Below, piece by piece: positions 5,154-29,902 of a DNA stretch of 36,480 nucleotides (position 1 is its first letter; every line of letters starts with the position of its first letter). Position numbers and translations under genes: made by a program. Origin of the DNA: a virus (taxonomy: Duplodnaviria; Heunggongvirae; Uroviricota; Caudoviricetes). The stretch is taken from the IMG/VR virus record IMGVR_UViG_2526164599_000008, one strand, 5' to 3'. The notes under the pieces were generated by a model that searched no databases, was not told the DNA's origin, and worked only from the letters and a program-made list of their open reading frames with translations.

Positions 5154-6320
5154 TTAAACCCCTTTGACAACGTCAGCGTTGACCTGTGGAACCCCGATTT
5201 CAGCAGCCAGATTCATGGCGGCTATTACCAGGTTACTGACGGCCAGCGGATACAGCAGGCTGACCATATTTTTACGATGACTTCCCGGATTGCTCAGGCG
5301 GGCACGTATGGCATCCACTGCGCTGGCGTCCATAATGTCCGTCAGTTGTTTACCGGCCCGTTGCAGTTTGAACGTCAGAAATTCTTCAAGGTTATTGTCC
5401 AGAGGCAGAAGTTCGACCACCTCACAGCGCTGAACGACTTCACGGACTTCCATATTGCGTTCAGACAGTTTTGTCGCCAGTTCCGGCTGACCAATTAGCA
5501 CGATGGACAGCAGTTTTTTGAAACCGGACTCCAGCTCAAAAAAGCGTTTGAGGTGTTTCAGTGTCGGAATGGGCAGACTGTGGGCCTCCTCAATCACCAG
5601 AACGTGGCTGAACCCCGCCTGGCTGCTGTCTTTCAGGACGCGATGCAACTGGCGAAAGCGGGCGTCCTGACTGCGTCTGATGCTTTCCAGTGGTGCGATG
5701 GTACTGATAATGGCTTCGGCAATCGCTGCTGCCTTCAGAGTTTTCCCTTTCACATCGTTGTCTTCCATAGCGATGATGTATGGCTCGATAACAATCACTG
5801 GCGCATTCTCGCGGTTGATACGTTCAGTCAGGTCACGGCGCAGCGTGGATTTACCCGCACCGGACTCACCGATGACGGCCATAAACCCACCATGACGTGC
5901 TGTCTGGTACAACGCCTCACGCACGTAGCGAATGTCCGGGGTGGTGAACACATCATCAGAACCCTGCATGGCTTCGTCGGCGAACGGGTCACGGAAAAGA
6001 CCAAACGCTTTTTTGGTTGCTGGAAATAACACCTGTTTTTTGAGTAACATATTCTCTTCCTCACTGAGGCTCGTTTTATCTGTGGTACCCGATGTACGGG
6101 GCGTGGCCGCGCCCTGTACAGCATCAAAACTCTTCGCTGTATCAATCCCCTGACTTTCCAGCCAGGACGCAAGACGCCGGCGCACTTCTCCGGGGCTGGT
6201 GCGGGGCCACGCGTTATGATTCACAATCTGGGCCAGCGTGGCCTCAGAAACATCGACAGCTCTCGCCACCACCGCCTGTGAAATACGGGCCTCTTTCAGT
6301 TGCTGCTTCAGTACCAGCAT
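5154..6320 (-). CDS. Transposition ATPase (TnpB / Mu B-like AAA+ protein)
   Basis: Walker A GESGAGKST and Walker B-like VLVIEEAH. N-terminal HTH-like region. Track ORF starts at a GTG (6359), but the internal ATG at 6320 has GAGGAGG 5 nt upstream and lies just after the transposase stop. Confidence 0.75.
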   Translation of the reverse strand: MLVLKQQLKEARISQAVVARAVDVSEATLAQIVNHNAWPRTSPGEVRRRLASWLESQGIDTAKSFDAVQGAATPRTSGTTDKTSLSEEENMLLKKQVLFPATKKAFGLFRDPFADEAMQGSDDVFTTPDIRYVREALYQTARHGGFMAVIGESGAGKSTLRRDLTERINRENAPVIVIEPYIIAMEDNDVKGKTLKAAAIAEAIISTIAPLESIRRSQDARFRQLHRVLKDSSQAGFSHVLVIEEAHSLPIPTLKHLKRFFELESGFKKLLSIVLIGQPELATKLSERNMEVREVVQRCEVVELLPLDNNLEEFLTFKLQRAGKQLTDIMDASAVDAIRARLSNPGSHRKNMVSLLYPLAVSNLVIAAMNLAAEIGVPQVNADVVKGV

Positions 6321-6330
6321 GTTTTCCTCC

Positions 6331-8100
6331 TCAGTTGCCGTTAACAATGCTGATAACACTGCTGCGGGCCGGCGTGGTCAGCGTGGCCATGACTTCATCC
6401 AGTGCGGCTTCCGGTACGCCGTCCGGGTACTGTGCCGTTAACTGGCGGTAATGTTCCGGCGTCCAGGTAAGGCCGTTGGCGCTGAACTTCCCGCGCAGGG
6501 CTTTCGCGGCCTCCACATGAGTCATGGGACGCTGTTCAGTGCGCGGTCCGCGTACGTCAGAGGCCTGACCTCGCTTCGGCATATAGGCCGGAAGTGTGGC
6601 GTCATCAATATGTTTATACGGGTCAAGCCGCCCGCCGAACGGCAGCGCCTTCGCCTTGCGTGCGGCAGCTGCATCTGCGGCGTTGTCTGTACCGGTGACC
6701 AGCGCTTCGGTTTCTTTTGCCGCCATCTGCGCCGGGGTTTCCGGCAGGGCTTTGTAACTTTCGCCAAATACCGCCGCGCCTTCAGCAAAGCCAAACTCGT
6801 TCTTTCTGACCTCTTCGACCAGGAAGAACGTCTCGTGGCCGTCCTCACCGGTCAGAACCACCTGTGCCACATCGCTGCGCCACGGGTTACGGGTAATCAT
6901 CAGTTTTTCACCGACCAGTACGCCCGGTACCGTTGATACGTCAAATTCAGTGCCCCGGAACGAGACACGAAGTTTTGGCGTGACTTTGCGGAGTTCTGGT
7001 GCCGCCACAGCCAGTTCACGACATACCTCAACGGAAGGCGCTTTTTTCAGCTGCTCAGCAGTAATCTTCAGCCAGATATCCGTGCGGGTTTTACCGTGGC
7101 GGCTGTGAACAGCCGTGGCGTTAAAGTGGCTGCGCCATTTCGCGGCCAGCGCGTTGAGTTCTTCCAGACTGTGAACCGGCCGGAACTTCAGACCCGGCTC
7201 CAGCTTGCGTTCGATAATGTCACGCGCCTTTTCCACCTGTCCGGTGGCGCGGGCGTTATGCGGCTTGTGCGCTATCAGGTCAATGCCCAGTGAGCGGCAC
7301 ATGTTTTTCGTCATACCCGCGGTGTTTGCCGAACCGGGGTCGAGATAGAGTATTTTTGGCACGCCGTGCAGCACGTCTGCGCCGCCACGCTCCTGCATGG
7401 CGTTGATAAGCACAGAACACAGGTTCTCACCGGATTCCGCACCCGTCACATACTCAACGTAAATCCAGCCGCTGGCATGGTCGGTAATCTCGTAACTCCA
7501 CACGCGGTCACTGGCGATACGGGCAAGGTTAGCGGGTTTGTTCTTGTAGAACTTCGCGCTGTCCATCACCTGCAGCCCTTTGTGTCCATTGCTCAGGTAG
7601 TAAAGCGTGCAGAGCGAGGCATCAATCTGCCAGACATGATTGGGATGCAGACTGGCCACTTCGGTATGCGGCGCAGGAGCATCCAGTTGTTCCGGGTGCA
7701 GGCCATAGTTACGCAGGGCACGACTGATGGCATCTTCGGACAACGGGAAAAACTCACCGGTGGTTTCATCTGTTCTGCCTGCGGAGATAAAGCCGTTAGC
7801 CCGCAGGGTTTCCACTGCATCCGCGATGGAATAGAGACGCTTACCGTTCTTGCGGGTGGCCTCACGCAGTGTGGCAGATATCAGCGCGGCTTCGTCGCGG
7901 GTCAGGGCGCTGCGTCCGGCATCAGCGCGTTTTTTGCGTTTATCAGTCACAGAGACCTCCTTCAGCCTGCGCAGCAGAGTGGCGCGGGACATGCCAAGTT
8001 CAGCACAGGCAGCGTCGTATATTGCACCGCGTTTACCATGCCCCGCGTCACGTGCCGCGCGGGCGACATAAACCAGTCGTTCAGTCAGGGCAGCATTCAT
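6331..8100 (-). CDS. DDE transposase (rve/Mu-type catalytic core)
   Basis: 589 aa. Candidate catalytic residues: D in HVWQIDAS, D in ILYLDPGSAN, E about 35 residues later in GQVEKA (D,D-35-E spacing). Gene order transposase then ATPase as in transposable phages. Confidence 0.8.
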   Translation of the reverse strand: MNAALTERLVYVARAARDAGHGKRGAIYDAACAELGMSRATLLRRLKEVSVTDKRKKRADAGRSALTRDEAALISATLREATRKNGKRLYSIADAVETLRANGFISAGRTDETTGEFFPLSEDAISRALRNYGLHPEQLDAPAPHTEVASLHPNHVWQIDASLCTLYYLSNGHKGLQVMDSAKFYKNKPANLARIASDRVWSYEITDHASGWIYVEYVTGAESGENLCSVLINAMQERGGADVLHGVPKILYLDPGSANTAGMTKNMCRSLGIDLIAHKPHNARATGQVEKARDIIERKLEPGLKFRPVHSLEELNALAAKWRSHFNATAVHSRHGKTRTDIWLKITAEQLKKAPSVEVCRELAVAAPELRKVTPKLRVSFRGTEFDVSTVPGVLVGEKLMITRNPWRSDVAQVVLTGEDGHETFFLVEEVRKNEFGFAEGAAVFGESYKALPETPAQMAAKETEALVTGTDNAADAAAARKAKALPFGGRLDPYKHIDDATLPAYMPKRGQASDVRGPRTEQRPMTHVEAAKALRGKFSANGLTWTPEHYRQLTAQYPDGVPEAALDEVMATLTTPARSSVISIVNGN

Positions 8101-10121: not shown

Positions 10122-11129
10122 ATGTCTGAGCAGACCATTGAAGTTAAACACGTTGTAGTTCACATTTTAGACAAACAACAAAATGGAGACGCTTCTGAGA
10201 GATTGAGTCCTGAAGAAGGTCTAGTTACTGAAGCCTCCCAGCGCCTTATAAACGATATTTGTGCAAAATATGCAGGACGCACAGGTAAAGGTTATGGCTA
10301 TTTTGAAGGCGATACGGATAACTATCCTATGGAACGAATGGCTGGGGACTTTCTCGAAGGTGTTGATGATTTCTACCAAAGTTCCTGCCGAATGATGCAT
10401 CACCTGACGGAACGTTCTCAGCGAGAAAACATGGCTACTGGTGGTTATGTTCTTTTTGCAAATATCGTGATAGGACACAATGAACACCTGTTGATAGCTA
10501 TTGTAAGCGCTACCATTGGATCCACTGTCACAGATGATTTTAACATCCAAGATAGTACCTATCTTGATATTGCTAAGCTGCGTATGGCTGGGCGCATTGA
10601 CTTAACCGCGTGGGAAAGTGGCGCAGAGCGCTATATCAGTTTTCTTAAGGGGCAAGGTAATGTTTCAAACTATTTTAAACAGTTCCTCGGCTGTAATGAT
10701 GTCTTAATCGCCAAACGAGAGTCTGAAAAGTTACGTGACGTTTTAAAAGCATTTGCGGCAGAGAAAGGACTTGACGGCGCTGAAAAAGATGCATTTCTTA
10801 AGAGTGCGTTTGAACACTTACATGCACTAAGTAAGGCTGGTGAACCACTTAGTCTTGAAACCCTTGTTAATGCCATTTGGCCCCAGGCTCCCGAGGAGTT
10901 ATCTGGTAAACTTGCTGCTGAAGAGTTGGAGTTATCGGATGGCTTCGTTCCTGATGGTCGAGTCATTCGGGCTCTGGTATCTTTTAAAGGCAAGTCTAAA
11001 TATTGGGAACTTAAGTTTGACCGGGAAGGGAAAACTGAAGGCTATATTGATTATGATCCGGAAACAAATATTATCACCCTACGTAATGTACCTGAAGAAT
11101 TTAGGGAAATGTGGATGACTGAGGTTTAA
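10122..11129 (+). CDS. NdpA/YejK-like nucleoid-associated protein homologue (cargo gene)
   Basis: 335 aa, the same length as E. coli YejK. Blocks GGYVLF, LLIAIVS, YLDIAKL, RIDLTAWESGAERYISFLKG, FKQFLG align by eye with YejK blocks as I remember them. AT-richer than the flanking phage genes. Confidence 0.5.
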   Translation: MSEQTIEVKHVVVHILDKQQNGDASERLSPEEGLVTEASQRLINDICAKYAGRTGKGYGYFEGDTDNYPMERMAGDFLEGVDDFYQSSCRMMHHLTERSQRENMATGGYVLFANIVIGHNEHLLIAIVSATIGSTVTDDFNIQDSTYLDIAKLRMAGRIDLTAWESGAERYISFLKGQGNVSNYFKQFLGCNDVLIAKRESEKLRDVLKAFAAEKGLDGAEKDAFLKSAFEHLHALSKAGEPLSLETLVNAIWPQAPEELSGKLAAEELELSDGFVPDGRVIRALVSFKGKSKYWELKFDREGKTEGYIDYDPETNIITLRNVPEEFREMWMTEV

Positions 11130-16239: not shown

Positions 16240-17831
16240 CAAAATCATCCGGAGTGATTTTAAACGCCGCTGGCGGCGGCCCCGAAGGGATGAGTCCCAT
16301 GGACGGGAGGAATAACCTTGCTCCCGTTTTGCCTGATACCTCGGCGCTGGATGCCCCTCCCGTTCTGTTGCCTTACCAGCAGCGCTGGGTGGCAGACACC
16401 TCTCCGCTTAAGGTGATAGAAAAGAGCCGTCGTACCGGTATTACATGGGCTGAGGCATCCGATAACGTACTGACCGCCGCCTCTTCTGCGCCAGCAGGCG
16501 GGATGAATGTGTATTACATCGCTTATAACCAGGACATGACCGTCGAATACATTCAGGCGTGTGCGATGTGGGCACGGGCATTCAACTATGCGGCCAGTGA
16601 AATTGAAGAAGGATTCTGGGAAGAGGACGACGACGACAAACACATCAGGACTTACACCATCAAATTTCCTGACTCCGGCTTTCGTATTGTTGCGCTCTCC
16701 AGCCGCCCGTCTAACCTGCGTGGCCGTCAGGGTATTATTGTTATCGACGAAGCGGCGTTCCATGAGCAACTGGACGAACTGCTGAAAGCGGCGCTGGCGA
16801 TGCTTATCTGGGGGGGAAAGGTACGCGTTATCTCCACCCATAACGGTGACGACAATCCGTTCAATACGCTTATCGGGGATATCCGTGCCGGACGTCAGGG
16901 AGGCAGCATACATCGCATCACTTTCCGGGAAGCCGTATCTGAGGGGCTGTTCCGGCGCGTCTGTCTGCGCACCGGGAAGGAATGGTCGGAGGCATCCGAG
17001 CAGGCCTGGATGGCATCGGTGTACAAATTCTACGGTGCCGGCGCATCCGAAGAGCTTGACTGTATTCCGGCCAACGGTGGCGGTGCCTGGCTGTCCCGTG
17101 CCCTGATAGAGTCCCGCATGTCCGCTGATACGCCGGTATTGCGTCTGACCTGCAAGGAAGGTTATGAACTGCTGTCTGATGAGGTTCGCTTCCGCGAGAC
17201 GCAGGACTGGCTTGATGAGTATCTGAAACCCTTGCTGGAGGCACTCCCCACTGATGCCCGCTCTTTCCTGGGGCGCGACTTTGGCCGTAGCGGTGATTTG
17301 TCGGTGGACTATCCCCTGCTGCAGGAGAAGAACCTGGTACGACGCGTGCCATTCGTACTGGAGCTGCGTAACGTGCCGTTCAGACAGCAGGAGCAAATCA
17401 CCTGGTATCTGATGGATGGCCTGCCCGGTCTGCTGGGTGCAGCGTTTGATGCCCGTGGTAATGGTGCCTATCTGGCTGAATACGCCATGCAGCGCTACGG
17501 CTCCAGCCGGGTTCAGCAGGTGATGCCAACCGAAGGCTGGTACCGGGAGCATATGCCTCCGGTCAAAGCTGCACTGGAAGACGGTAACCTGGTGGACTTA
17601 CCAAAGGATGAAGACACACTGGATGACCTGCGGGCCGTTCAGGTGGTGAACGGTGTCCCCCGCGTACCGGAGCAACGCTCAAAAGCAAAGGCTGACGGTG
17701 GTAAACGCCACGGGGATTCAGCCATCGCACTGGCGCTGGCGTATTTCGCCAGCCGTGAAATTAACAAAGGGCCGGTGAAGGCAAGCTCACGCCGTCGTCG
17801 TCAGGCGGCCCGTATGCTGGAGGGATTCTGA
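16236..17831 (+). CDS. Terminase large subunit (Mu gp28-like)
   Basis: 531 aa. Position between the small terminase and portal. Acidic patch EEDDDDKH. Size typical of large terminases. Confidence 0.7.
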   Translation: MTKSSGVILNAAGGGPEGMSPMDGRNNLAPVLPDTSALDAPPVLLPYQQRWVADTSPLKVIEKSRRTGITWAEASDNVLTAASSAPAGGMNVYYIAYNQDMTVEYIQACAMWARAFNYAASEIEEGFWEEDDDDKHIRTYTIKFPDSGFRIVALSSRPSNLRGRQGIIVIDEAAFHEQLDELLKAALAMLIWGGKVRVISTHNGDDNPFNTLIGDIRAGRQGGSIHRITFREAVSEGLFRRVCLRTGKEWSEASEQAWMASVYKFYGAGASEELDCIPANGGGAWLSRALIESRMSADTPVLRLTCKEGYELLSDEVRFRETQDWLDEYLKPLLEALPTDARSFLGRDFGRSGDLSVDYPLLQEKNLVRRVPFVLELRNVPFRQQEQITWYLMDGLPGLLGAAFDARGNGAYLAEYAMQRYGSSRVQQVMPTEGWYREHMPPVKAALEDGNLVDLPKDEDTLDDLRAVQVVNGVPRVPEQRSKAKADGGKRHGDSAIALALAYFASREINKGPVKASSRRRRQAARMLEGF

Positions 17832-19327
17832 TGGCGAGGGGTATCTGGGTTTCACCCGATGAATTTGTTGCTTTTTCTGAGCCTCAGAAATCACTGACCG
17901 CGCAGATTGCCTCCCGCAGCCGCGCGATCGACTTTTACGGACTGGGCATGTATCTGCCCAATCCTGATCCCATTCTCAAGGCTCAGGGACGGGATATCCG
18001 TATCTACCGCGAACTGCGCACCGACCCGCTGGTCGGGGGCTGTATCCGCAGACGTAAAGCAGCGCTTAAATCGCTGGAGCGTGGACTGGAGCGTGGTCAC
18101 GCCTCTGCCCGGGTCTTCCGTTTCATCCGCGACATGCTCGACGATCTGGATCTGTCCCGCATCATCGGTGAAATGAGCGATGCCGTGCTCTACGGGTATC
18201 AGCCCTGTGAAATCATGTGGGGCCGTTCGGTCAGGTCGTGGGCGGTGACGGATATTGTCGGCAAACCGCCTGAGTGGTTTCAGTTTGATACGGACAACTG
18301 CCTGCGCTTCCGGGCGCGTGATGCGGGTGTGGAGGGTGAGCTGCTGTCACCGTCAAAATTCGTGGTGCCGGCACAGGATGCCTCGTATGACAATCCTTAC
18401 GGTTTCCCGGACCTGTCCATGTGCTTCTGGCCGGTCGCCTTCAAGAAAGGCGGGATGAAATTCTGGCTCCGCTTTGCCGAAAAGTTTGGCTCCCCGTGGG
18501 TGATCGGTAAGCACCCGAGGGGTGCAAATGATGCAGAGATTGAAAAACTGCTGGACTCCATGGAGCAGATGGTGGAGGACGCGGTGGCCGCCATCCCCGA
18601 TGACAGCAGCATCGAACTCAAAGCCGCGGATGGTAAGGCGGACAGCAGCGAGGTATTCCGCGAGCTGATCACACTGTCACGCAGTGAGATCTCCATTGCA
18701 TTACTCGGTCAGAATCAGACCACGGAAGCGAACAGTAACAAGGCCTCTGCACAGGCCGGGCTGGAGGTAACGGCTGATATCCGCGATGCGGATGCGGACA
18801 TCATTCAGGCGGCAGTGAATCAGGTCATCAGAACGGTGGTCACCCTGAACTTCGGCGATGTGCCGTGTCCGGTCTGGGCCATGTGGGAACAGGAGGCCAT
18901 TGATGACACCCGTGCCACCCGCGACGAAAAACTCACCCGGGCGGGTCTGCGTCTGACCCCGCAGTACTTCAAGCGTGAGTACCAACTGCAGGACGGCGAT
19001 ATTGACGAGACACCACCGTCGGAACGACAGAATAACATGCTGCCGCTGTCATTTGCCGAGGCGATTGATGCTGATATTCAGGCTCAGCAGCAGCTTGACG
19101 ACGCGCTGGACATTCTGATGAACGGAGGCGCGTTAAATGGCACGCTGGAACCCGTCCTGGCACCTCTGTTCAGGCGGGTCGAAAATGGGGTTAACCCGTC
19201 TGAGCTGCTGGGCGAACTGGCGGAGCTCTACCCTCAGATGAACACGGACGATCTGCAGGAGCGGCTGGCCCGCATTCTCTTTGTGACAAATATCTGGGGG
19301 CGTCTGCATGAGCGTGACAACGGCTGA
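17831..19327 (+). CDS. Portal protein (Mu gp29-like)
   Basis: 498 aa, immediately after the terminase. Size and order as in Mu-like head modules. Confidence 0.65.
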   Translation: MARGIWVSPDEFVAFSEPQKSLTAQIASRSRAIDFYGLGMYLPNPDPILKAQGRDIRIYRELRTDPLVGGCIRRRKAALKSLERGLERGHASARVFRFIRDMLDDLDLSRIIGEMSDAVLYGYQPCEIMWGRSVRSWAVTDIVGKPPEWFQFDTDNCLRFRARDAGVEGELLSPSKFVVPAQDASYDNPYGFPDLSMCFWPVAFKKGGMKFWLRFAEKFGSPWVIGKHPRGANDAEIEKLLDSMEQMVEDAVAAIPDDSSIELKAADGKADSSEVFRELITLSRSEISIALLGQNQTTEANSNKASAQAGLEVTADIRDADADIIQAAVNQVIRTVVTLNFGDVPCPVWAMWEQEAIDDTRATRDEKLTRAGLRLTPQYFKREYQLQDGDIDETPPSERQNNMLPLSFAEAIDADIQAQQQLDDALDILMNGGALNGTLEPVLAPLFRRVENGVNPSELLGELAELYPQMNTDDLQERLARILFVTNIWGRLHERDNG

Positions 19328-20129
19328 ACTGGCGTACTGCATGACGCTTCCCCCGAAGCGGGCAATCAACTACCTGAAGTCCAAAGGGTATCAGATTACC
19401 TGGGACTGGGAAGAAATGTGGCAGGAGGCCCATGCCCGCGCCTTTACCGTTGCTAAAGTGACCCGCCTGGATATCCTGGAAGATATTCGCGGGGCACTGC
19501 AGCAGGCTGTCGATGAAGGAAAAACCGATCGCTGGTTCCGGCAGGAGCTGGAGCCGGTGCTGAAGCGTAAGGGATGGTGGGGACCACGTGACACGACTGA
19601 CCCGGTAACGGGTGAGCCAGTCACCATTCAGCAGGGCAGTCCGTGGCGGCTCGATACCATCTTTCGCACCAATATGTCCGTACTCTACAGCGCCGGTCGT
19701 TGGGCGGAACAGATGGAAAACGTCGACGACAGGCCGTACTGGATGTATACCGGCATCAACGACAGCCATACCCGCAGGAGCCATCTGGCGCTGCATGGTC
19801 TGGTGCTGCGCTGGGATGACCCGTTCTGGCAGGCATTTTACCCGCCGAACGGCTGGCGCTGCCGCTGTAGTGTGATTGCCCTGAGTGCGGCGGATGTACG
19901 TGCCCGTGGCCTGAAGGTTATCAGCTCCGGCTCTGCCATGGGCCAGGAACTGAAACTGGTCTCAGAGAAAACCGGCGAAATGCGGAACGTGGCCACCTTT
20001 AATACCGGCACCACGAAGGTGACCACCGACGTCGGCTGGTCTTATGCACCGGGGGCAGCATACCGTCCCGACCTGGCCCGCTATCAGGGTACGCTTCAGC
20101 CACTGGCACAACAGGAACTGAGAGGATAA
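19308..20129 (+). CDS. Head morphogenesis protein (Mu F-like)
   Basis: 273 aa. Conserved block DSHTRRSHLALHGLVLRWDDPFW...GWRCRCSV matches the Mu F-family signature from memory. Confidence 0.65.
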   Translation: MSVTTAELAYCMTLPPKRAINYLKSKGYQITWDWEEMWQEAHARAFTVAKVTRLDILEDIRGALQQAVDEGKTDRWFRQELEPVLKRKGWWGPRDTTDPVTGEPVTIQQGSPWRLDTIFRTNMSVLYSAGRWAEQMENVDDRPYWMYTGINDSHTRRSHLALHGLVLRWDDPFWQAFYPPNGWRCRCSVIALSAADVRARGLKVISSGSAMGQELKLVSEKTGEMRNVATFNTGTTKVTTDVGWSYAPGAAYRPDLARYQGTLQPLAQQELRG

Positions 20130-24148: not shown

Positions 24149-24399
24149 TGAAAGCATACCGCTATTCCGGCCCGGCCAGCGGCGTCACGCTGTCGGACGG
24201 AACCGAAATCCTGCTCTGGCCGGGGAAGGCGGTTTCCCTGCCGGAGGAGCATGACTACGTGAAGGTACTGGTGGCGCTGAAGCATCTGACGCCGGTACCA
24301 GAAGATACTAAACCCGCCGTCACACCGGCTGTGCAGTCACCAAAGCGCAGAAGCAGCAGTGACAGCGAAGTGAAAACGGAGGACGCCCATGGCAGCTAA
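24145..24399 (+). CDS. Hypothetical small protein
   Basis: 84 aa immediately upstream of the sheath gene. Confidence 0.4.
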   Translation: MMKAYRYSGPASGVTLSDGTEILLWPGKAVSLPEEHDYVKVLVALKHLTPVPEDTKPAVTPAVQSPKRRSSSDSEVKTEDAHGS

Positions 24400-25816
24400 C
24401 TATCTGCATGGTCCCGAAACCATTGAGGTGGAAAACGGAGCCCGCCCGGTTAAAACGGTGAAATCTGCCGTTATTGGCCTGATTGGTACCGCCCCGATGG
24501 GGGATGTCAATACGCTGGTACAGTGCCTGTCTGAGAAAGACGCAGCGGCATTTGGCAGCCAGTTCACCGGCTTTACCATTCCGCAGGCGCTGGATGCGAT
24601 TTATGACCATGGTGCAGGCACCGTTCTGGTCATTAACGTCCTCGACCCGGCGAAACATAAAACGGCGATCGAGGATGAGGTGGTTACCTTTGACAAATCG
24701 ACAGGGCAGGCCAGACTGGCGCATCCGGTTGTCGCTAATGTGGTGGTGAAAAACAGTGAAGGCAGCACCACCCACACGGCGAACACGGACTACCGTGTTG
24801 ATGCGCAGGCGGGTGTGCTCACGAACCTGGGCAAGGCTATTGAGGCCGGTGGCAGCGTGAAGGTGAGCTATGAGTACGCGGACCCGTCGAAGGTGACTGC
24901 GGCGGACATCATCGGCGGGGTGAACAGCGCCGGAAACCGAACCGGCATGAAGCTGCTTAACGACAGCTTCAACCTGTACGGCTATTTCGCCAAAATTCTG
25001 ATTGCGCCGGTGTTCTGCACCCAGAAGAGTGTCGCAGTTGAGCTTATCGCCATGGCAGAGAAGCTGGGCGCGGTAACCTACATTGATGCGCCTGTCGGTA
25101 CCACCTTTGCACAGGCTCTGGCAGGTCGTGGCCCGGAAGGCACCATCAACTTCAATACCAGCTCCGACCGCGTCCGTCTGTGCTATCCGCATGTGAAGGT
25201 ATATGACCCGGTGACAAACACAGAGCGTCTGGAGCCGCTCAGCCAGCGTGCAGCAGGTCTGCGTGCCAGAGTCGATCTGGACAAGGGCTACTGGTGGTCA
25301 TCCTCCAATCAGGAGATTCTGGGGATCACCGGCGTGGAGCGCCAGCTGTCCGCGATGATTGATGACCCGCAGAGTGAGGTAAACCTGCTTAACGAACAGG
25401 GGATCACCACGGTATTCAGCAGTTACGGCAGCGGCCTTCGTCTGTGGGGTAACCGGACGGCAGCATGGCCAACGGTCACCCATATGCGTAACTTTGAGAA
25501 CGTTCGCCGCACCGGTGATGTGATCAACGAGTCCATTCGTTATTTCAGCCAGCAGTACATCGACATGCCGATTACTCAGGCGCTGATTGATGCACTGACG
25601 GAGTCGGTCAACGCCTACGGTCGCAAAATGACTGGTGATGGTGCGGTACTGGGCTTCCGTTGCTGGTTTGATCCGGCCCGCAATCCGGAGACGGAGCTGG
25701 CCGCCGGGCACCTGTTGCTGAGCTACAAATATACGCCACCACCGCCGCTGGAGCGACTGACGTTTGAGACTGAGATCACCTCGGAATACCTGTTAACCCT
25801 GAAAGGGGGCAACTGA
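24389..25816 (+). CDS. Tail sheath protein
   Basis: 475 aa followed directly by a tube-sized gene. Contractile-tail gene order sheath, tube, chaperone, tape measure. Confidence 0.75.
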   Translation: MAANYLHGPETIEVENGARPVKTVKSAVIGLIGTAPMGDVNTLVQCLSEKDAAAFGSQFTGFTIPQALDAIYDHGAGTVLVINVLDPAKHKTAIEDEVVTFDKSTGQARLAHPVVANVVVKNSEGSTTHTANTDYRVDAQAGVLTNLGKAIEAGGSVKVSYEYADPSKVTAADIIGGVNSAGNRTGMKLLNDSFNLYGYFAKILIAPVFCTQKSVAVELIAMAEKLGAVTYIDAPVGTTFAQALAGRGPEGTINFNTSSDRVRLCYPHVKVYDPVTNTERLEPLSQRAAGLRARVDLDKGYWWSSSNQEILGITGVERQLSAMIDDPQSEVNLLNEQGITTVFSSYGSGLRLWGNRTAAWPTVTHMRNFENVRRTGDVINESIRYFSQQYIDMPITQALIDALTESVNAYGRKMTGDGAVLGFRCWFDPARNPETELAAGHLLLSYKYTPPPPLERLTFETEITSEYLLTLKGGN

Positions 25817-26337
25817 TGTCAAAGATTGAGATAAACCGCATCACGAATGCCAACATCTATCTGGATGGTACTAACCTGCTGGGACGGGCTGAGGAAGTTA
25901 AACTCCCCGATGTCTCCATGATTATGCAGGAACACAAGGCGCTGGGGATGGTGGGTAAGGTGGAACTCCCGGCTGGTTTTGACAAACTGGAAGGCGAAAT
26001 CAAATGGAACAGCTTTTACCGCGATGCGATGCTGTCTGCCGCTAACCCGTACAGGTCGCTGGCACTGCAGTGTCGTTCCAGCGTCCAGCGCTACAGCTCG
26101 CAGGGGCTGATTGACGAAATCCCGCTGGTCACCTTCCTGACGATTATGTTCAAGAAGAACCCTCTGGGGACGTTCAAACAGCACGAGAACGCCGAGTTCT
26201 CCAGTAGCTTCACCTGCACGTATATCAGACAGGTACTGGATGGTGAAGAGCTGCTGCAACTGGACTATCTGGCCAACATCTTCCGGGTCGGCGGTGTTGA
26301 TCAACTGACTGACTACCGTATCAATATCGGGGGCTGA
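25816..26337 (+). CDS. Tail tube protein
   Basis: 173 aa directly after the sheath gene. Confidence 0.7.
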   Translation: MSKIEINRITNANIYLDGTNLLGRAEEVKLPDVSMIMQEHKALGMVGKVELPAGFDKLEGEIKWNSFYRDAMLSAANPYRSLALQCRSSVQRYSSQGLIDEIPLVTFLTIMFKKNPLGTFKQHENAEFSSSFTCTYIRQVLDGEELLQLDYLANIFRVGGVDQLTDYRINIGG

Positions 26338-26339
26338 CG

Positions 26340-26621
26340 ATGAGTGTTGAACTGACGGATAAAGGAAGACGATGTGCGGCACTGGGCATGTCAAATGGTA
26401 CGTGGTTTACCCTCCTTGATATTCCGGGGGTGGAAACCCTTTTTAATACCCGTAAAACCAATGACCCGATTGACTGCACACGTTCAAAGGCCCGCAAACT
26501 GGCGGATTTGATTGAAGCATGGGAGCCTCCCGACCACTGGTTCTCCGGCACCGGCAAATCTGAGGGAAAGACGCTTCTCATCGCTTTCCTGCGTAACTGC
26601 AAGGGGTTTCGCACTTGCTGA
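26340..26621 (+). CDS. Hypothetical small protein
   Basis: 93 aa followed by the hairpin AGGGGC-TCCG-GCCCCT and a T-rich stretch. Confidence 0.4.
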   Translation: MSVELTDKGRRCAALGMSNGTWFTLLDIPGVETLFNTRKTNDPIDCTRSKARKLADLIEAWEPPDHWFSGTGKSEGKTLLIAFLRNCKGFRTC

Positions 26622-26718
26622 CATCACAGGGGCTCCGGCCCCTTCTTCTTAATCTCCTTTAATATCCGTCACGCGCTTCTCCCGACATACTGCCCTGAAC
26701 TTACACAGGAGCACAATC

Positions 26719-26991
26719 ATGTCACAGACCCCATCCGATACTTTTAAATTGTCTTATCCCTTCACCACTGCTGCAGGCACCAGAATTGAGCAGGTTGAAC
26801 TGAAACGCCTGACGGTAAAAGACCTGAAGCAGGTGCGCAAAATCAGCAAAAACCCGGCAGACTGGGACGAACCGCTGATTGCCCGCAGTACTGGTCTTCT
26901 CCCGGAAGATCTCGACAATATGGATCTGGCTGATTACCTGCAGTTACAGAAACGATTTCAGCTCATCACGGGGATGGGTGAGAGCAACTAG
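26719..26991 (+). CDS. Tail assembly chaperone (P2 gpE-like)
   Basis: 90 aa upstream of the tape measure. Overlapped by a second ORF, the hallmark of tail chaperone frameshift pairs. Confidence 0.6.
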   Translation: MSQTPSDTFKLSYPFTTAAGTRIEQVELKRLTVKDLKQVRKISKNPADWDEPLIARSTGLLPEDLDNMDLADYLQLQKRFQLITGMGESN

Positions 26992-27136
26992 GGCGCTGAC
27001 GCAGGCGCAGGGGCTGCTGGCGAGATGGTTCCGGTTTCAGCCGGGGGAGATTGATGCCCTCGATACTGACGATCTGGAGATGTGGCTGGAGCAGGCTGAA
27101 GAGCAAATAAAAAGCGAGTACGGCGACAAATCATAG
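26879..27136 (+). CDS. Frameshift extension of the tail assembly chaperone (E' equivalent), +1 frame relative to the chaperone
   Basis: Overlaps the chaperone ORF by 113 nt in the +1 frame and ends about 75 nt before the tape measure. Probably expressed only as a frameshift fusion. Confidence 0.5.
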   Translation: MPAVLVFSRKISTIWIWLITCSYRNDFSSSRGWVRATRALTQAQGLLARWFRFQPGEIDALDTDDLEMWLEQAEEQIKSEYGDKS

Positions 27137-27211
27137 TACAGACAGCCGCCAGTAGCGGCTGTTCTGCGTTATCCCCTCACGTCTTTTCACCTTCCCCGGA
27201 GGTTAACCACT

Positions 27212-29902
27212 ATGTCGGGACAGTTTTCAGTCGGCGTTGTTATCGGCGGGATGATTGGTAGCACATTCCGTTCTGCAATGAGCGGTACCCGCCGTGCGCT
27301 TGATTCCCTGAGCGATACCTCACGCCGCCTGCAGGAACGTCAGAACGCTTTAACCCGTGCAACAGAACGTTATGGTCAACTGGGTTCTTCCCGGATGCAG
27401 CATCTCAACAGCGAGCTGCTGCGGGTAAGCCGCACCATGGAGCAAATTGAGCGCCAGCAGCGCCGTCTGTCAGCGGCATCCGCTACCAGTGATGCGCTGA
27501 AAGCTAACCGCATGGCGCTGTATGGTCAGGGGATTGAAGCGTATGGCATGGCACAGACTGTTTATCATACGGTTTCCCCTGCCGTTCAGCAGTCCATGTC
27601 TTTTCAGGACAAAATGATTGATATGTCGATCACCGCAAAATATGACAATAAAACGCGGGATGGACTTGCCGGACAGATAAAAGGCTGGGCGCTTAAATAC
27701 AATCAGTATCAGGATGAGCTGCAGGAGGCGGTGGGTTCACTCATCAGCGACAATATTGATAATGTGTCAGATATCGGTTTTCTGATGCCGGATATTGCCC
27801 GCGCGGCAACGGCAACACGCACGTCTGCTCAGGACTGGGCAAAAGTGGCCGCAGTCTGGCAAAACTCCCTGAAAGGTGCGGCCAGAGATTTTGGTGCCGT
27901 TCAGAATATTATGGCTTATGCCGGTGACCAGGGGTCATTTGAAATCCCGGATCAGGTCAAGTGGATGCAGTCCCTGGCCCCAATGATGGCGGGTATTGCC
28001 AGTGGAAAAGAGGCTGTTGCTGAAATCGGGGCCAGTCTCCAGATAGCAAAAATCGGTGCAGGTTCCACCGACGAAGCAGCCAATAATTTTAAAAACTTTC
28101 TTACCAAAATTTTTGCCCGCGATACTCAGAAACAGTTTGCTGATCTGGGTATTGATTTGCAGGGATCTATTGCGAGTTATAAAGCTGCGGGGATCTCTCC
28201 GATTGAAGGGATGTTGAGTGTTATAGAACGTTACCTCAATGCCAAAAGCCCCGAAGCGCTGGCCGGCTTCAAATCAGCCATGAAAATAAAGAATGATACG
28301 GCAAGAGATGAGGCACTTCAGGCTCTGGCGAAAAACTTTGGTCTGGGCGATATGTTCGCGGATATGCAGGTCATGGCATTTATCCGCCCGATGCTGGCCA
28401 ACATGGACAGATATCGAGAGATCCGTGCCGGTGCTCTCAGGGCTGCGGATAACGATTTGCTTGCCAGTGCTTATGATCAGCGGCTGAAATCTCCCCTTGA
28501 AGCCACTAAAACACTTATGGTCAGCAGTCGCGATCTGGCAATTACGCTGGGCGATCAATTAGCTCCATCTTTTATTTCTTTGACTCAGGAACTGCTTCCA
28601 CTCATTCAGGGGGCAAAACACTGGGTAGCGACTCACCCGCAATTTGTCAGTGGGGCTTTTAAGCTCATCAGTGCGCTCCTTGCGATTAAGATAGCGACTG
28701 TTGGTCTCAAACTGGGGCTGAATCTCCTTATTTCCCCCTTTGTAAGTGTCTGGAAAAATGCTGTTTTACTTCGGGCCAACTGGCTTCGTCTGTCGCTCGC
28801 ACTGGGGCAAGGCGGTAAGCTCCGCTGGCTGGTGACCGGATTTAGCGCCGTCGCCAGAGGAGCCAGAACACTGAGTGGCGTGCTCTCCGAGGGGCTGGTT
28901 CGCGGAATTATGCTCGCCGGACGTGCTGTTCTCTGGATTGGACGTGCGCTGATGATGAATCCCATCGGTCTCGTTATCACCGCTGTCGCGGCAGCAGCTT
29001 ACCTTATCTACCGCAACTGGGGGGCAGTCAGTGGCTGGTTTAAACAGCGCTGGGCAGACATTCAGGAAGCCTTTAACGGCGGCATTGTGGGAATTGGTAA
29101 GTTACTGATTAACTGGTCGCCGGCAGGCCTGCTCTATAAAGCCTTTGCAGCTGCGCTGAAATATCTTGGTGTTGATCTGCCGGCAAAGTTTACCGACTTC
29201 GGTGGCCATCTTGTCGATGGTCTGATTAACGGTATCAAAAACAAATGGGAGTCGCTCAAATCCAGTGTAACCGGAATGGGTGACAGCATCAGTGGCTGGT
29301 TCAGCGAAAAGCTGGGCATTCATTCGCCGAGCCGCGTGTTTATGGGCTTTGGTGACAATATCGCGCAGGGGGCCGCCATTGGCCTGCAGCGGACCACTCC
29401 GCTTGCAGCTCTGGCCGGGCAGCGAATGGCCAGTGAACTGCTCCCCAGAATGCCCGTGAGCATCCAGGGGCCAGAAATACGGGATAACACTTCAGGTGTT
29501 CGCTTCAGTATGCCGTTGCCCGATATCAATGGGTTTATGTCGTCTGCTAAAAATGCGATCGGAGCCGTAATCAATAGTTTGTCTTCCATGCCCGCTATTC
29601 CGCTCTCCACCCGGGCATCGATTTTACCAGGGCAACGTCTGGCAAATGAGATGACACCGGATGTTCCCCGTATCCCCTCGCCTGAAATCCTGGCTGCCGG
29701 ATATTCAGGCCGTGGTGCAGCTGCAACCGGCGGTGGAACGTCTGGTGGTATCCAGGTCAGCTTTAATCCTCAGTTTTTCCTCAATGGCAGGGAAACCACA
29801 GCGCCTGCAGGACTGACTGGTGCCCTGAATATGAGTCTGCATGAGCTGGAAAAAATGCTGGAGCGTCTGCTGGCTCAGAAACAACGTAAGGAGTACCGCT
29901 GA
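27212..29902 (+). CDS. Tail tape measure protein
   Basis: 896 aa, helical N-terminal half, hydrophobic central segments, Gly/Ala-rich C-terminus. Follows the chaperone pair. Confidence 0.8.
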   Translation: MSGQFSVGVVIGGMIGSTFRSAMSGTRRALDSLSDTSRRLQERQNALTRATERYGQLGSSRMQHLNSELLRVSRTMEQIERQQRRLSAASATSDALKANRMALYGQGIEAYGMAQTVYHTVSPAVQQSMSFQDKMIDMSITAKYDNKTRDGLAGQIKGWALKYNQYQDELQEAVGSLISDNIDNVSDIGFLMPDIARAATATRTSAQDWAKVAAVWQNSLKGAARDFGAVQNIMAYAGDQGSFEIPDQVKWMQSLAPMMAGIASGKEAVAEIGASLQIAKIGAGSTDEAANNFKNFLTKIFARDTQKQFADLGIDLQGSIASYKAAGISPIEGMLSVIERYLNAKSPEALAGFKSAMKIKNDTARDEALQALAKNFGLGDMFADMQVMAFIRPMLANMDRYREIRAGALRAADNDLLASAYDQRLKSPLEATKTLMVSSRDLAITLGDQLAPSFISLTQELLPLIQGAKHWVATHPQFVSGAFKLISALLAIKIATVGLKLGLNLLISPFVSVWKNAVLLRANWLRLSLALGQGGKLRWLVTGFSAVARGARTLSGVLSEGLVRGIMLAGRAVLWIGRALMMNPIGLVITAVAAAAYLIYRNWGAVSGWFKQRWADIQEAFNGGIVGIGKLLINWSPAGLLYKAFAAALKYLGVDLPAKFTDFGGHLVDGLINGIKNKWESLKSSVTGMGDSISGWFSEKLGIHSPSRVFMGFGDNIAQGAAIGLQRTTPLAALAGQRMASELLPRMPVSIQGPEIRDNTSGVRFSMPLPDINGFMSSAKNAIGAVINSLSSMPAIPLSTRASILPGQRLANEMTPDVPRIPSPEILAAGYSGRGAAATGGGTSGGIQVSFNPQFFLNGRETTAPAGLTGALNMSLHELEKMLERLLAQKQRKEYR

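Follow-up and report, generated by a model that had tools for sequence, protein, structure and literature searches.

The tail region of a BcepMu-like transposable prophage of Escherichia coli, represented by virus record IMGVR_UViG_2526164599_000008 (a stretch of 36,480 nucleotides (nt), referred to throughout as the window), contains two small overlapping open reading frames (ORFs) between the tail tube and tape measure genes. The first encodes a tail assembly chaperone and the second an extension with no conserved start codon, and the question raised by this locus is how the extension is translated. The locus is a gpE / gpE+E' (lambda G/GT-type) chaperone pair, and the sequence comparisons presented here suggest, with a probability of about 0.75, that the long form of the chaperone would be made by a +1 ribosome slip at CGA_UUU_C, that is, on UUU_C.

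Frame relationship of the chaperone and its extension

The chaperone gene (26719-26991, + strand, frame 0) starts with ATG and ends, in the window allele, with a TAG stop at 26989-26991 after 90 amino acids (aa); it is 111 aa long in most E. coli copies. The 90-aa product belongs to PF10109, Phage_TAC_7 (E=1.9e-22, 79.5 bits with a cut-off of 25, residues 8-82), a family described in Pfam as 'Phage tail assembly chaperone proteins, E, or 41 or 14'. It also matches phrog_166 'tail protein' (5.5e-30), and is a homolog of P2 gpE, Mu gp41 and BcepMu gp41, while an NCBIfam scan of the chaperone and the extension gave no match. The second ORF (26879-27136, + strand) ends with a TAG stop at 27134-27136. 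Three-frame re-translation showed an offset between the two starts of 160 nt (26879-26719 = 160 = 3x53+1), which places the extension in the +1 frame with an overlap of 113 nt, the same relationship as given in the initial annotation of this DNA.

The absence of a -1 slippery heptamer from the overlap, likewise claimed in that annotation, was upheld, since no in-phase X_XXY_YYZ heptamer occurs within the 113 nt. In addition, the -1 frame is shut by a TGA at about 26978 and by another stop before 26995, so that a -1 shift gives no extension. The sole in-phase heptamer of the gene, A_AAC_CCG at 26850, was considered and rejected, as it lies 5' of the +1 ORF and opens into a dead-end frame.

The overlap geometry was compared among related phages and prophages, about 130 distinct sequences ranging from E. 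coli to Pseudomonas, Ralstonia and BcepMu. These comprised 32 Enterobacterales genome loci, 80 viral contigs, the Pseudomonas and Ralstonia/Burkholderia-like clades, three distant Salmonella, Ralstonia and Pseudomonas phage or prophage records, BcepMu, and two short-tailed variants from Citrobacter and Salmonella prophages (L155 and L156). The +1 geometry was present in every intact relative, and the requirement for shifting to the +1 frame instead of the classical -1 is thus not an artefact of a single sequence. More distant PF10109 relatives (Pasteurella phage AFS-2018a, L149, L150) have their extension in the -1 frame with classical A_AAG sites. The rarity of such cases was overstated in the initial annotation, since non -1 tail-chaperone shifts, including -2 (Mu) and +1, are established in the literature (PMC5009743).

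Conservation points to TTT-C as the probable shift site

The position of the shift is bounded on both sides by stop codons. On the 5' side, the Ralstonia and Pseudomonas clades have a +1-frame TGA that precedes the aligned TTC by three codons, while on the 3' side a frame-0 TAA is found nine codons after the TTT in the Citrobacter variant L155. If the site is positionally shared, these bounds place the shift within about 12 codons, upstream of the TAG of the window. In this stretch, TTT-C (26956-26959) comprises the only nucleotides that are invariant across all clades, and it is retained in every one of the about 130 distinct sequences; when 24 diverse sequences were aligned over 96 nt, no other 4-mer was invariant. 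The TTT codon is retained even in the GC-rich Pseudomonas, Ralstonia and BcepMu clades, and the residue that follows Phe may be Gln, Leu, Arg or His, yet the first base of its codon is always C. In the tail genes of the window, only 5 of 44 TTT codons are followed by C. CGA precedes TTT in the Ralstonia-like clade and in 82 of the 84 sequences from the enteric clade, but makes up only 4.6% of the Arg codons in the same tail genes.

Synonymous variation is suppressed over AAA CGA TTT CAG (26950-26961, + strand). Across 80 unique sequences, the frame-0 proportion of synonymous differences (pS) falls from 0.61 in the preceding 81 nt to 0.07 in this zone, and the per-codon third-position entropy is 0.00-0.35 as compared to 0.5-1.9 elsewhere. 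The lone apparent exception (L016) carries a 1-nt deletion upstream, with CGATTTC still present. The locus presents the sequence features of a UUU_Y site, namely an in-frame UUU followed by a pyrimidine, with the +1 frame open from at most three codons upstream and selected downstream.

Selection changes frame downstream of the proposed site

Selection on the two frames was estimated as the ratio of nonsynonymous to synonymous differences (pN/pS) by the Nei-Gojobori method over the 80 unique ungapped sequences. In the segment before the motif, pN/pS was 0.23 in frame 0 and 1.10 in the +1 frame, and this relationship was inverted in segments 26990-27052 (2.08 in frame 0 and 0.27 in +1) and 27053-27133 (1.28 and 0.43, respectively), showing that purifying selection acts on the +1 frame downstream of 26990. 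The variable linker at 26960-26988 gave values of 0.52-0.66 in frame 0 and 0.52-0.71 in +1, and the third-position entropy signal changes over to the +1 frame from about 26962-26975. The recurrent +1 geometry, together with the purifying selection on the +1 frame, indicates that the arrangement is not due to chance.

Proposed mechanism and points against it

At the proposed site CGA_UUU_C (26953-26959, + strand), most ribosomes would stay in frame 0 to yield the short chaperone, of 90 aa in the window. A minority would slip +1, with the peptidyl-tRNA-Phe (anticodon GAA) leaving UUU (26956-26958) and re-pairing to UUC (26957-26959), with CGA in the E site, and decoding would then continue at AGC (26960). 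The predicted product is a 138-aa fusion of about 15.6 kDa, made up of residues 1-80 followed by SSSRGWVRATRALTQAQGLLARWFRFQPGEIDAL...GDKS, with the junction M1...L-Q-K-R-F80 / S-S-S-R-G-W-V-R-A-T-R-A-L-T-Q-A-Q-G-L-L-A-R-W-F-R-F-Q-P-G-E-I-D.... The +1 re-pairing from UUU to UUC is perfect, while a -2 slip would face GAU, UGU, CGU or CCU; these codons do not match tRNA-Phe, and a -2 slip at TTT-C is therefore not supported. We infer that the event is ribosomal, +1 rather than -2 and of low efficiency. By analogy with lambda gpGT and P2 gpE+E', the N-terminal domain common to both products would have the tape measure protein as its partner, and the extension would bring in the tube protein.

Several observations weigh against a slip at this position. 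The CGA codon gives way to GTG, ACG or TCC in the Pseudomonas and BcepMu clades, and Arg-Phe is also conserved as a frame-0 protein motif, so that part of the conservation lies at the amino-acid level. Neither frame is clearly favoured by pN/pS across 26960-26988, and selection alone consequently places the shift no finer than 26950-26990. The A-site codon after UUU (CAG, CUG, CGG, CAA) is not obviously slow, and no stimulator was recognized: RNAalifold returned 0 conserved pairs downstream over 24 sequences, there was no Rfam match at E<=1, and no Shine-Dalgarno (SD)-like element was visible upstream in CTGCAGTTACAGAAACGA. Single-sequence folds differed among relatives. With no conserved structure, Rfam match or SD-like element, the slip would have to be largely intrinsic and of low efficiency, which would suit the low fusion-to-chaperone ratio known from lambda G/GT; that the weakly pairing CGA codon contributes from the E site is speculative.

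The ambiguity of the linker also leaves room for the most serious of the rival explanations, a Mu-like shift on a G-run, in which tRNA-Gly would slip -2 (or +1) at ACG GGG A (26968-26974) to give ...LITG(G)/WVRATR.... Mu gp41, a member of the same Pfam family, has a verified -2 shift on CGG GGG CGA that is followed by G-E-W-L-R, and its junction aligns to the interval from F80 to W86. In the window, GGGG at 26970-26973 precedes W-V-R in the +1 frame, and in the enteric clade Gly85 is invariant and is followed by the invariant +1-frame Trp. Against this, the run itself is not conserved, being replaced by ATC GGA TTG in Photorhabdus, ACA GGT CTG in Brenneria and AGC ATG in Salmonella L035, and it also differs in the Ralstonia, Pseudomonas and BcepMu clades. 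Moreover, -2 re-pairing at the G-run of the window means GGG to CGG, a first-position mismatch, and the run shows no synonymous-site constraint (third-position entropy of 1.23 at GGG and 1.85 at ACG). A shift on this run is accordingly judged unlikely. The other GGGG in the region, at 27010-27013 (CA GGG GCT), was rejected as a site because Pectobacterium has CAGGCGCTG there and Photorhabdus lacks it.

The extension and its expression

Read after the proposed shift, the extension (26960-27136, + strand) has 58 codons plus the stop: SSSRGWVRATRALTQAQGLLARWFRFQPGEIDALDTDDLEMWLEQAEEQIKSEYGDKS. It matches phrog_8286 (1e-32), and its peptide is near-invariant among relatives, LLARWFRFQP(G/S)E(I/L)D..L...(L/F)E.WL..A..QIK.E.G, with a LLLVLRMQPSEI... 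variant in the Pseudomonas and BcepMu clades. A segment resembling P2 GpE (E') spans 27017-27115 (+ strand), which corresponds to fusion residues 100-132. The predicted fusion of the window matched PF06528 Phage_P2_GpE with 18.3 bits and E=0.0016, under the gathering score of 23. Among 20 predicted fusions of relatives, PF10109 was detected in all 20 and PF06528 in 15, with a best value of 1.1e-6.

Analysis of possible starts revealed no conserved start codon for the extension: across the +1 codon columns from 26957 to 27026, start codons occur in at most 47% of the 80 unique sequences, and the best column (47%) reads ACG in the window. The pair consists of two overlapping ORFs 5' of the tape measure gene, the second of which is without a conserved start of its own and is maintained among relatives as an alternative-frame extension, as in the tail-chaperone frameshift class. 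The explanation without recoding, in which the extension would start internally and be made alone, as a small protein of the 'GpE family', is very unlikely in view of this result. It does agree with current annotation by most gene callers, as the Prokaryotic Genome Annotation Pipeline (PGAP) calls a separate 46-aa 'GpE family phage tail protein', and phrog_8286 and the 30 representative homologs found among 1.84 billion proteins (33-112 aa, with differing starts) are small separate ORFs. In fact, 29 of the 30 are short stand-alone ORF calls and the 112-aa one is a truncated indel variant, and none is a full-length natural in-frame fusion. Nevertheless, the lengths of the called ORFs scatter between 33 and 84 aa, and the +1 frame is open back to TTT-C in all clades, with stops immediately upstream. 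Furthermore, P2 E' and the Mu extension, which are homologous, have been proven to be made exclusively as fusions. No curated fusion protein with the predicted junction was found among 5.8 billion proteins, and a PDB sequence search with the fusion profile gave a sole match at E=0.08, which is attributed to chance.

In some database sequences the two ORFs are joined by 1-nt indels, as in Erwinia tracheiphila (L011), Apirhabdus apintestini (L016), P0002, P0004, P0016, P0020 and P0106. The indels differ in position, lying at the G5 run, at the G4 run, close to codon 91 or 5' of CGATTTC, and either sequencing errors or constitutive-fusion mutations of decaying prophages could account for them.

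The proteins fused in frame exactly at the G5 run (27043-27047), namely the 138-aa database proteins P0002, P0010 and P0007 and the Erwinia tracheiphila copy, are what speaks for a shift or indel at this run, which would join ...PVSAG/EIDAL.... This explanation is the least credible of those considered. Frame 0 ends before the run in the window and in the 104-aa class, and the run is missing in Photorhabdus, Brenneria and Xenorhabdus. Upstream of it lies the near-invariant +1 peptide LLARWFRFQP, with changes that are silent in the +1 frame alone. In the other database 'fusions' the junction varies in position, and these resemble assembly indels.

The TAG codon at the end of the chaperone frame

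The initial annotation had located the shift at the frame-0 stop of the window, with a +1 slip at AAC-TAG-G (26986-26992) giving ...GMGESN/RALTQ.... In favour of this site, +1 shifting can be promoted by an A-site stop codon, prfB being an example, and selection clearly acts on the +1 frame from 26990 onwards. However, the TAG (26989-26991, + strand) proved to be a derived amber allele that cuts the frame-0 tail by 21 codons and is not the shift site. With an exact 61-mer centred on the codon, the 589 E. coli genome copies were found to have TAG in only 6 cases and CAG in 560, while the same codon is GAA or AAA in other genera. The change from C to T is synonymous in the +1 frame (ACC to ACT). 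Consistent with this, chaperone homologs are mostly 104-113 aa long; those with 99% identity read ...GESN-Q-GADAGAGAAGEMVPVSAGGD, that is, with CAG for the TAG of the window, and the 111-aa forms P0006 and P0003 read ...SNQGADAGAGAAGEMVPVSAGGD.

Relatives have sense codons at this position, and their frame-0 stops lie 9, 11, 12, 25, 27, 30 or 32 codons past Phe80 (tails of 8-31 residues). In the Citrobacter variant L155, the frame-0 stop is located 5' of the position of the window's TAG, so a shared shift site must lie further 5'. In addition, ACU does not allow re-pairing of the tRNA-Asn that reads AAC, and the upstream sequence lacks an SD-like element. Slippage at the stop codon is therefore highly improbable, and that part of the initial annotation is not supported.

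The frame-0 pN/pS of 2.08 after 26990 and the variable stops indicate that the frame-0 tail is an unselected read-out. Third-position choices of the +1 frame were seen to create the frame-0 stops of relatives near 27028-27036 and 27043-27047, as when Arg AGA instead of CGG gives TAG in 'GTT TAG ATT', or when AGT GAG gives TGA, and the frame-0 terminator thus moves freely. The amber allele probably does no harm. In strains that carry it, the chaperone is labelled by PGAP as a pseudogene with an 'internal stop', for example at 3421-3756 of L001 (NZ_CP054232), and this label is probably a false alarm.

Genomic context

The chaperone pair occupies the same place as P2-type pairs, between the tail tube gene FII (25816-26337, + strand; PF04985 Phage_tube, 2.9e-53) and the tape measure gene (27212-29902, + strand; PF10145 PhageMin_Tail, 1.7e-20). 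The sheath gene (24389-25816) and the genes for gpU, X and D, downstream of the tape measure gene, complete a P2-type contractile tail module. Elsewhere in the window are a MuB-like AAA ATPase (5154-6359, - strand), an rve (Mu-type) transposase (6331-8100, - strand), an NA37-family nucleoid-associated protein (10122-11129), the Mu portal (17831-19327) and Mu F (19308-20129), and the first 1317 positions (1-1317) belong to a host gene with PAP2 and dual-specificity phosphatase domains. Phage PhiKM, a relative with 99% identity, is classified as Bcepmuvirus. Of 5426 complete E. coli genomes, 641 contain the element, and the BcepMu-like clade, present in about 11% of such genomes, reaches Pseudomonas, Ralstonia and Burkholderia.

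Three further features flank the pair. Within 26340-26643, the tube and chaperone genes are separated by an inserted 93-aa ORF (phrog_1239, with a weak match to DUF7739) and, after it, a terminator-like hairpin at 26628-26643; PGAP labels this ORF 'frameshifted' in strain EcPF7, and L156 has a different gene (PF13876) in the slot. A second hairpin (27143-27161), CAGCCGC-cagta-GCGGCTG followed by TTCTGCGTT, lies past the stop of the extension and ahead of the tape measure gene, and in close relatives its stem is kept and the loops differ. It falls below the T-run threshold of the terminator scan and may act in attenuation or in mRNA stability. In many relatives, a small ORF of 86-99 aa lies on the reverse strand between the extension and the tape measure gene, with copies (- strand) at 1426-1686 in L155, 1384-1683 in L156 and about 1895-2105 in L036, and equivalents in L037 and L038. 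The Ralstonia copy is strongly hydrophobic, and the ORF is absent from the window, where 27137-27211 is only a 75-nt gap.

Novelty and significance

No description of a +1 chaperone shift in Bcepmuvirus was found in the searchable literature, which does not cover Xu et al. 2004, so that a prior mention is possible. Tail-chaperone frameshifting and UUU_Y +1 sites are both known, and the finding overturns nothing in this respect, non -1 shifts being already established; the CGA_UUU_C case is apparently unannotated. In hundreds of E. coli genomes and in the BcepMu record, the pair is carried as separate small genes, as a pseudogene or with another slippage, and a defined CGA_UUU_C +1 rule would let annotation pipelines join the two genes correctly.

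Regarding mechanism, the locus would provide a conserved, apparently stimulator-free bacterial +1 site with natural E-site variants (CGA, UCC, GUG and ACG) that are comparable with one another. If the proposed slip is true, it would be a natural bacterial counterpart of the influenza PA-X sequence UCC_UUU_CGU and a clean system for the study of E-site effects on +1 slippage.

Comparison with known systems

The low fixed ratio of short to extended chaperone, made between the major tail and tape measure genes, is known from lambda gpG/gpGT (PMC5009743), and the function of the present pair is proposed by analogy with it. Lambda differs in being a siphovirus with a -1 tandem slip on G_GGA_AAG, and there is no sequence similarity between the two.

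Phage P2 (AF063097) is closer. It shares the PF10109 domain and, apparently, a PF06528-like extension, the slot between the tube and tape measure genes, and similar product sizes (91/142 aa in P2 and 90-111/138 aa here). A hidden Markov model of the predicted fusions aligned P2 gpE+E' end to end, through the extension, and the invariant Phe falls on the Phe of the verified -1 slippery run of P2, GGT TTT TTG, at the end of the N-terminal domain. The direction of the slip is the main difference, as P2 uses a -1 tandem slip on a T7 run (T_TTT_TTG), whereas a +1 single-tRNA slip on UUU_C is proposed here. The present family has no homopolymer or T-run and no P2-type -1 site, and its extension lies in the other alternative frame.

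Mu gp41/Mu_56 (AF083977) belongs to the same Pfam family and also has its extension in the +1 frame relative to the chaperone. The -2 frameshift is marked as verified in that record, which cites PMID 15469818. The Mu junction on CGG GGG CGA, ...ERG/GEWLR, lies just before a conserved Trp and aligns between F80 and the invariant Trp86 of the present family. Mu nevertheless differs in that gp41 is longer (144 aa), the extension has little sequence similarity, and -2 slippage on CGG_GGG_C re-pairs GGG with GGG. The family of the window has no conserved G-run and allows only +1 on UUU_C; a Mu-type -2 site was not found, since ACG_GGG_A in the window gives CGG at -2 and the run is missing in many relatives.

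The closest precedents for the proposed slip itself come from other genes and other organisms. The UUU_Y sites prone to +1 slippage include E. coli argI and apparently Yersinia YopN-TyeA, and in the influenza A PA-X cassette UCC_UUU_CGU the E-site codon contributes to the shift (Atkins et al. 2016, PMC5009743). In common with these, the locus has a P-site UUU followed by a pyrimidine, and an adjacent stop codon is not needed. It differs in that the enteric A-site CAG is not a known slow codon.

BcepMu (AY539836) is the same type of phage with the same gene order. Its gp41 is a PF10109 homolog and its gp42 is, as judged from frame and homology, a +1-frame extension of gp41, with a longer linker than in the window and the site TCC TTT CGC, so that UCC_UUU_CGC is identical to the PA-X sequence except for the last base. 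In the GenBank record, gp42 is given as the lambda-G analogue and gp43 as its slippage product, and no +1 fusion of gp41 and gp42 is annotated. In this record (L152, 5603-6364), gp43 is a GC-rich ORF in the own frame of gp41, for which no homology support was seen. For KS10, the authors of the phage description found no slippery sequence in their gp41-like gene.

Taken together, these comparisons raise the tentative idea, which we hold at a little short of even odds, that PF10109 may include three recodings at the same codon position: -1 on T_TTT_TTG in P2, -2 on G_GGG_G in Mu, and a stimulator-less, apparently undescribed +1 on (CGA/UCC)_UUU_C in BcepMu-like phages. One protein family would in that case have changed the direction of its recoding yet kept the position.

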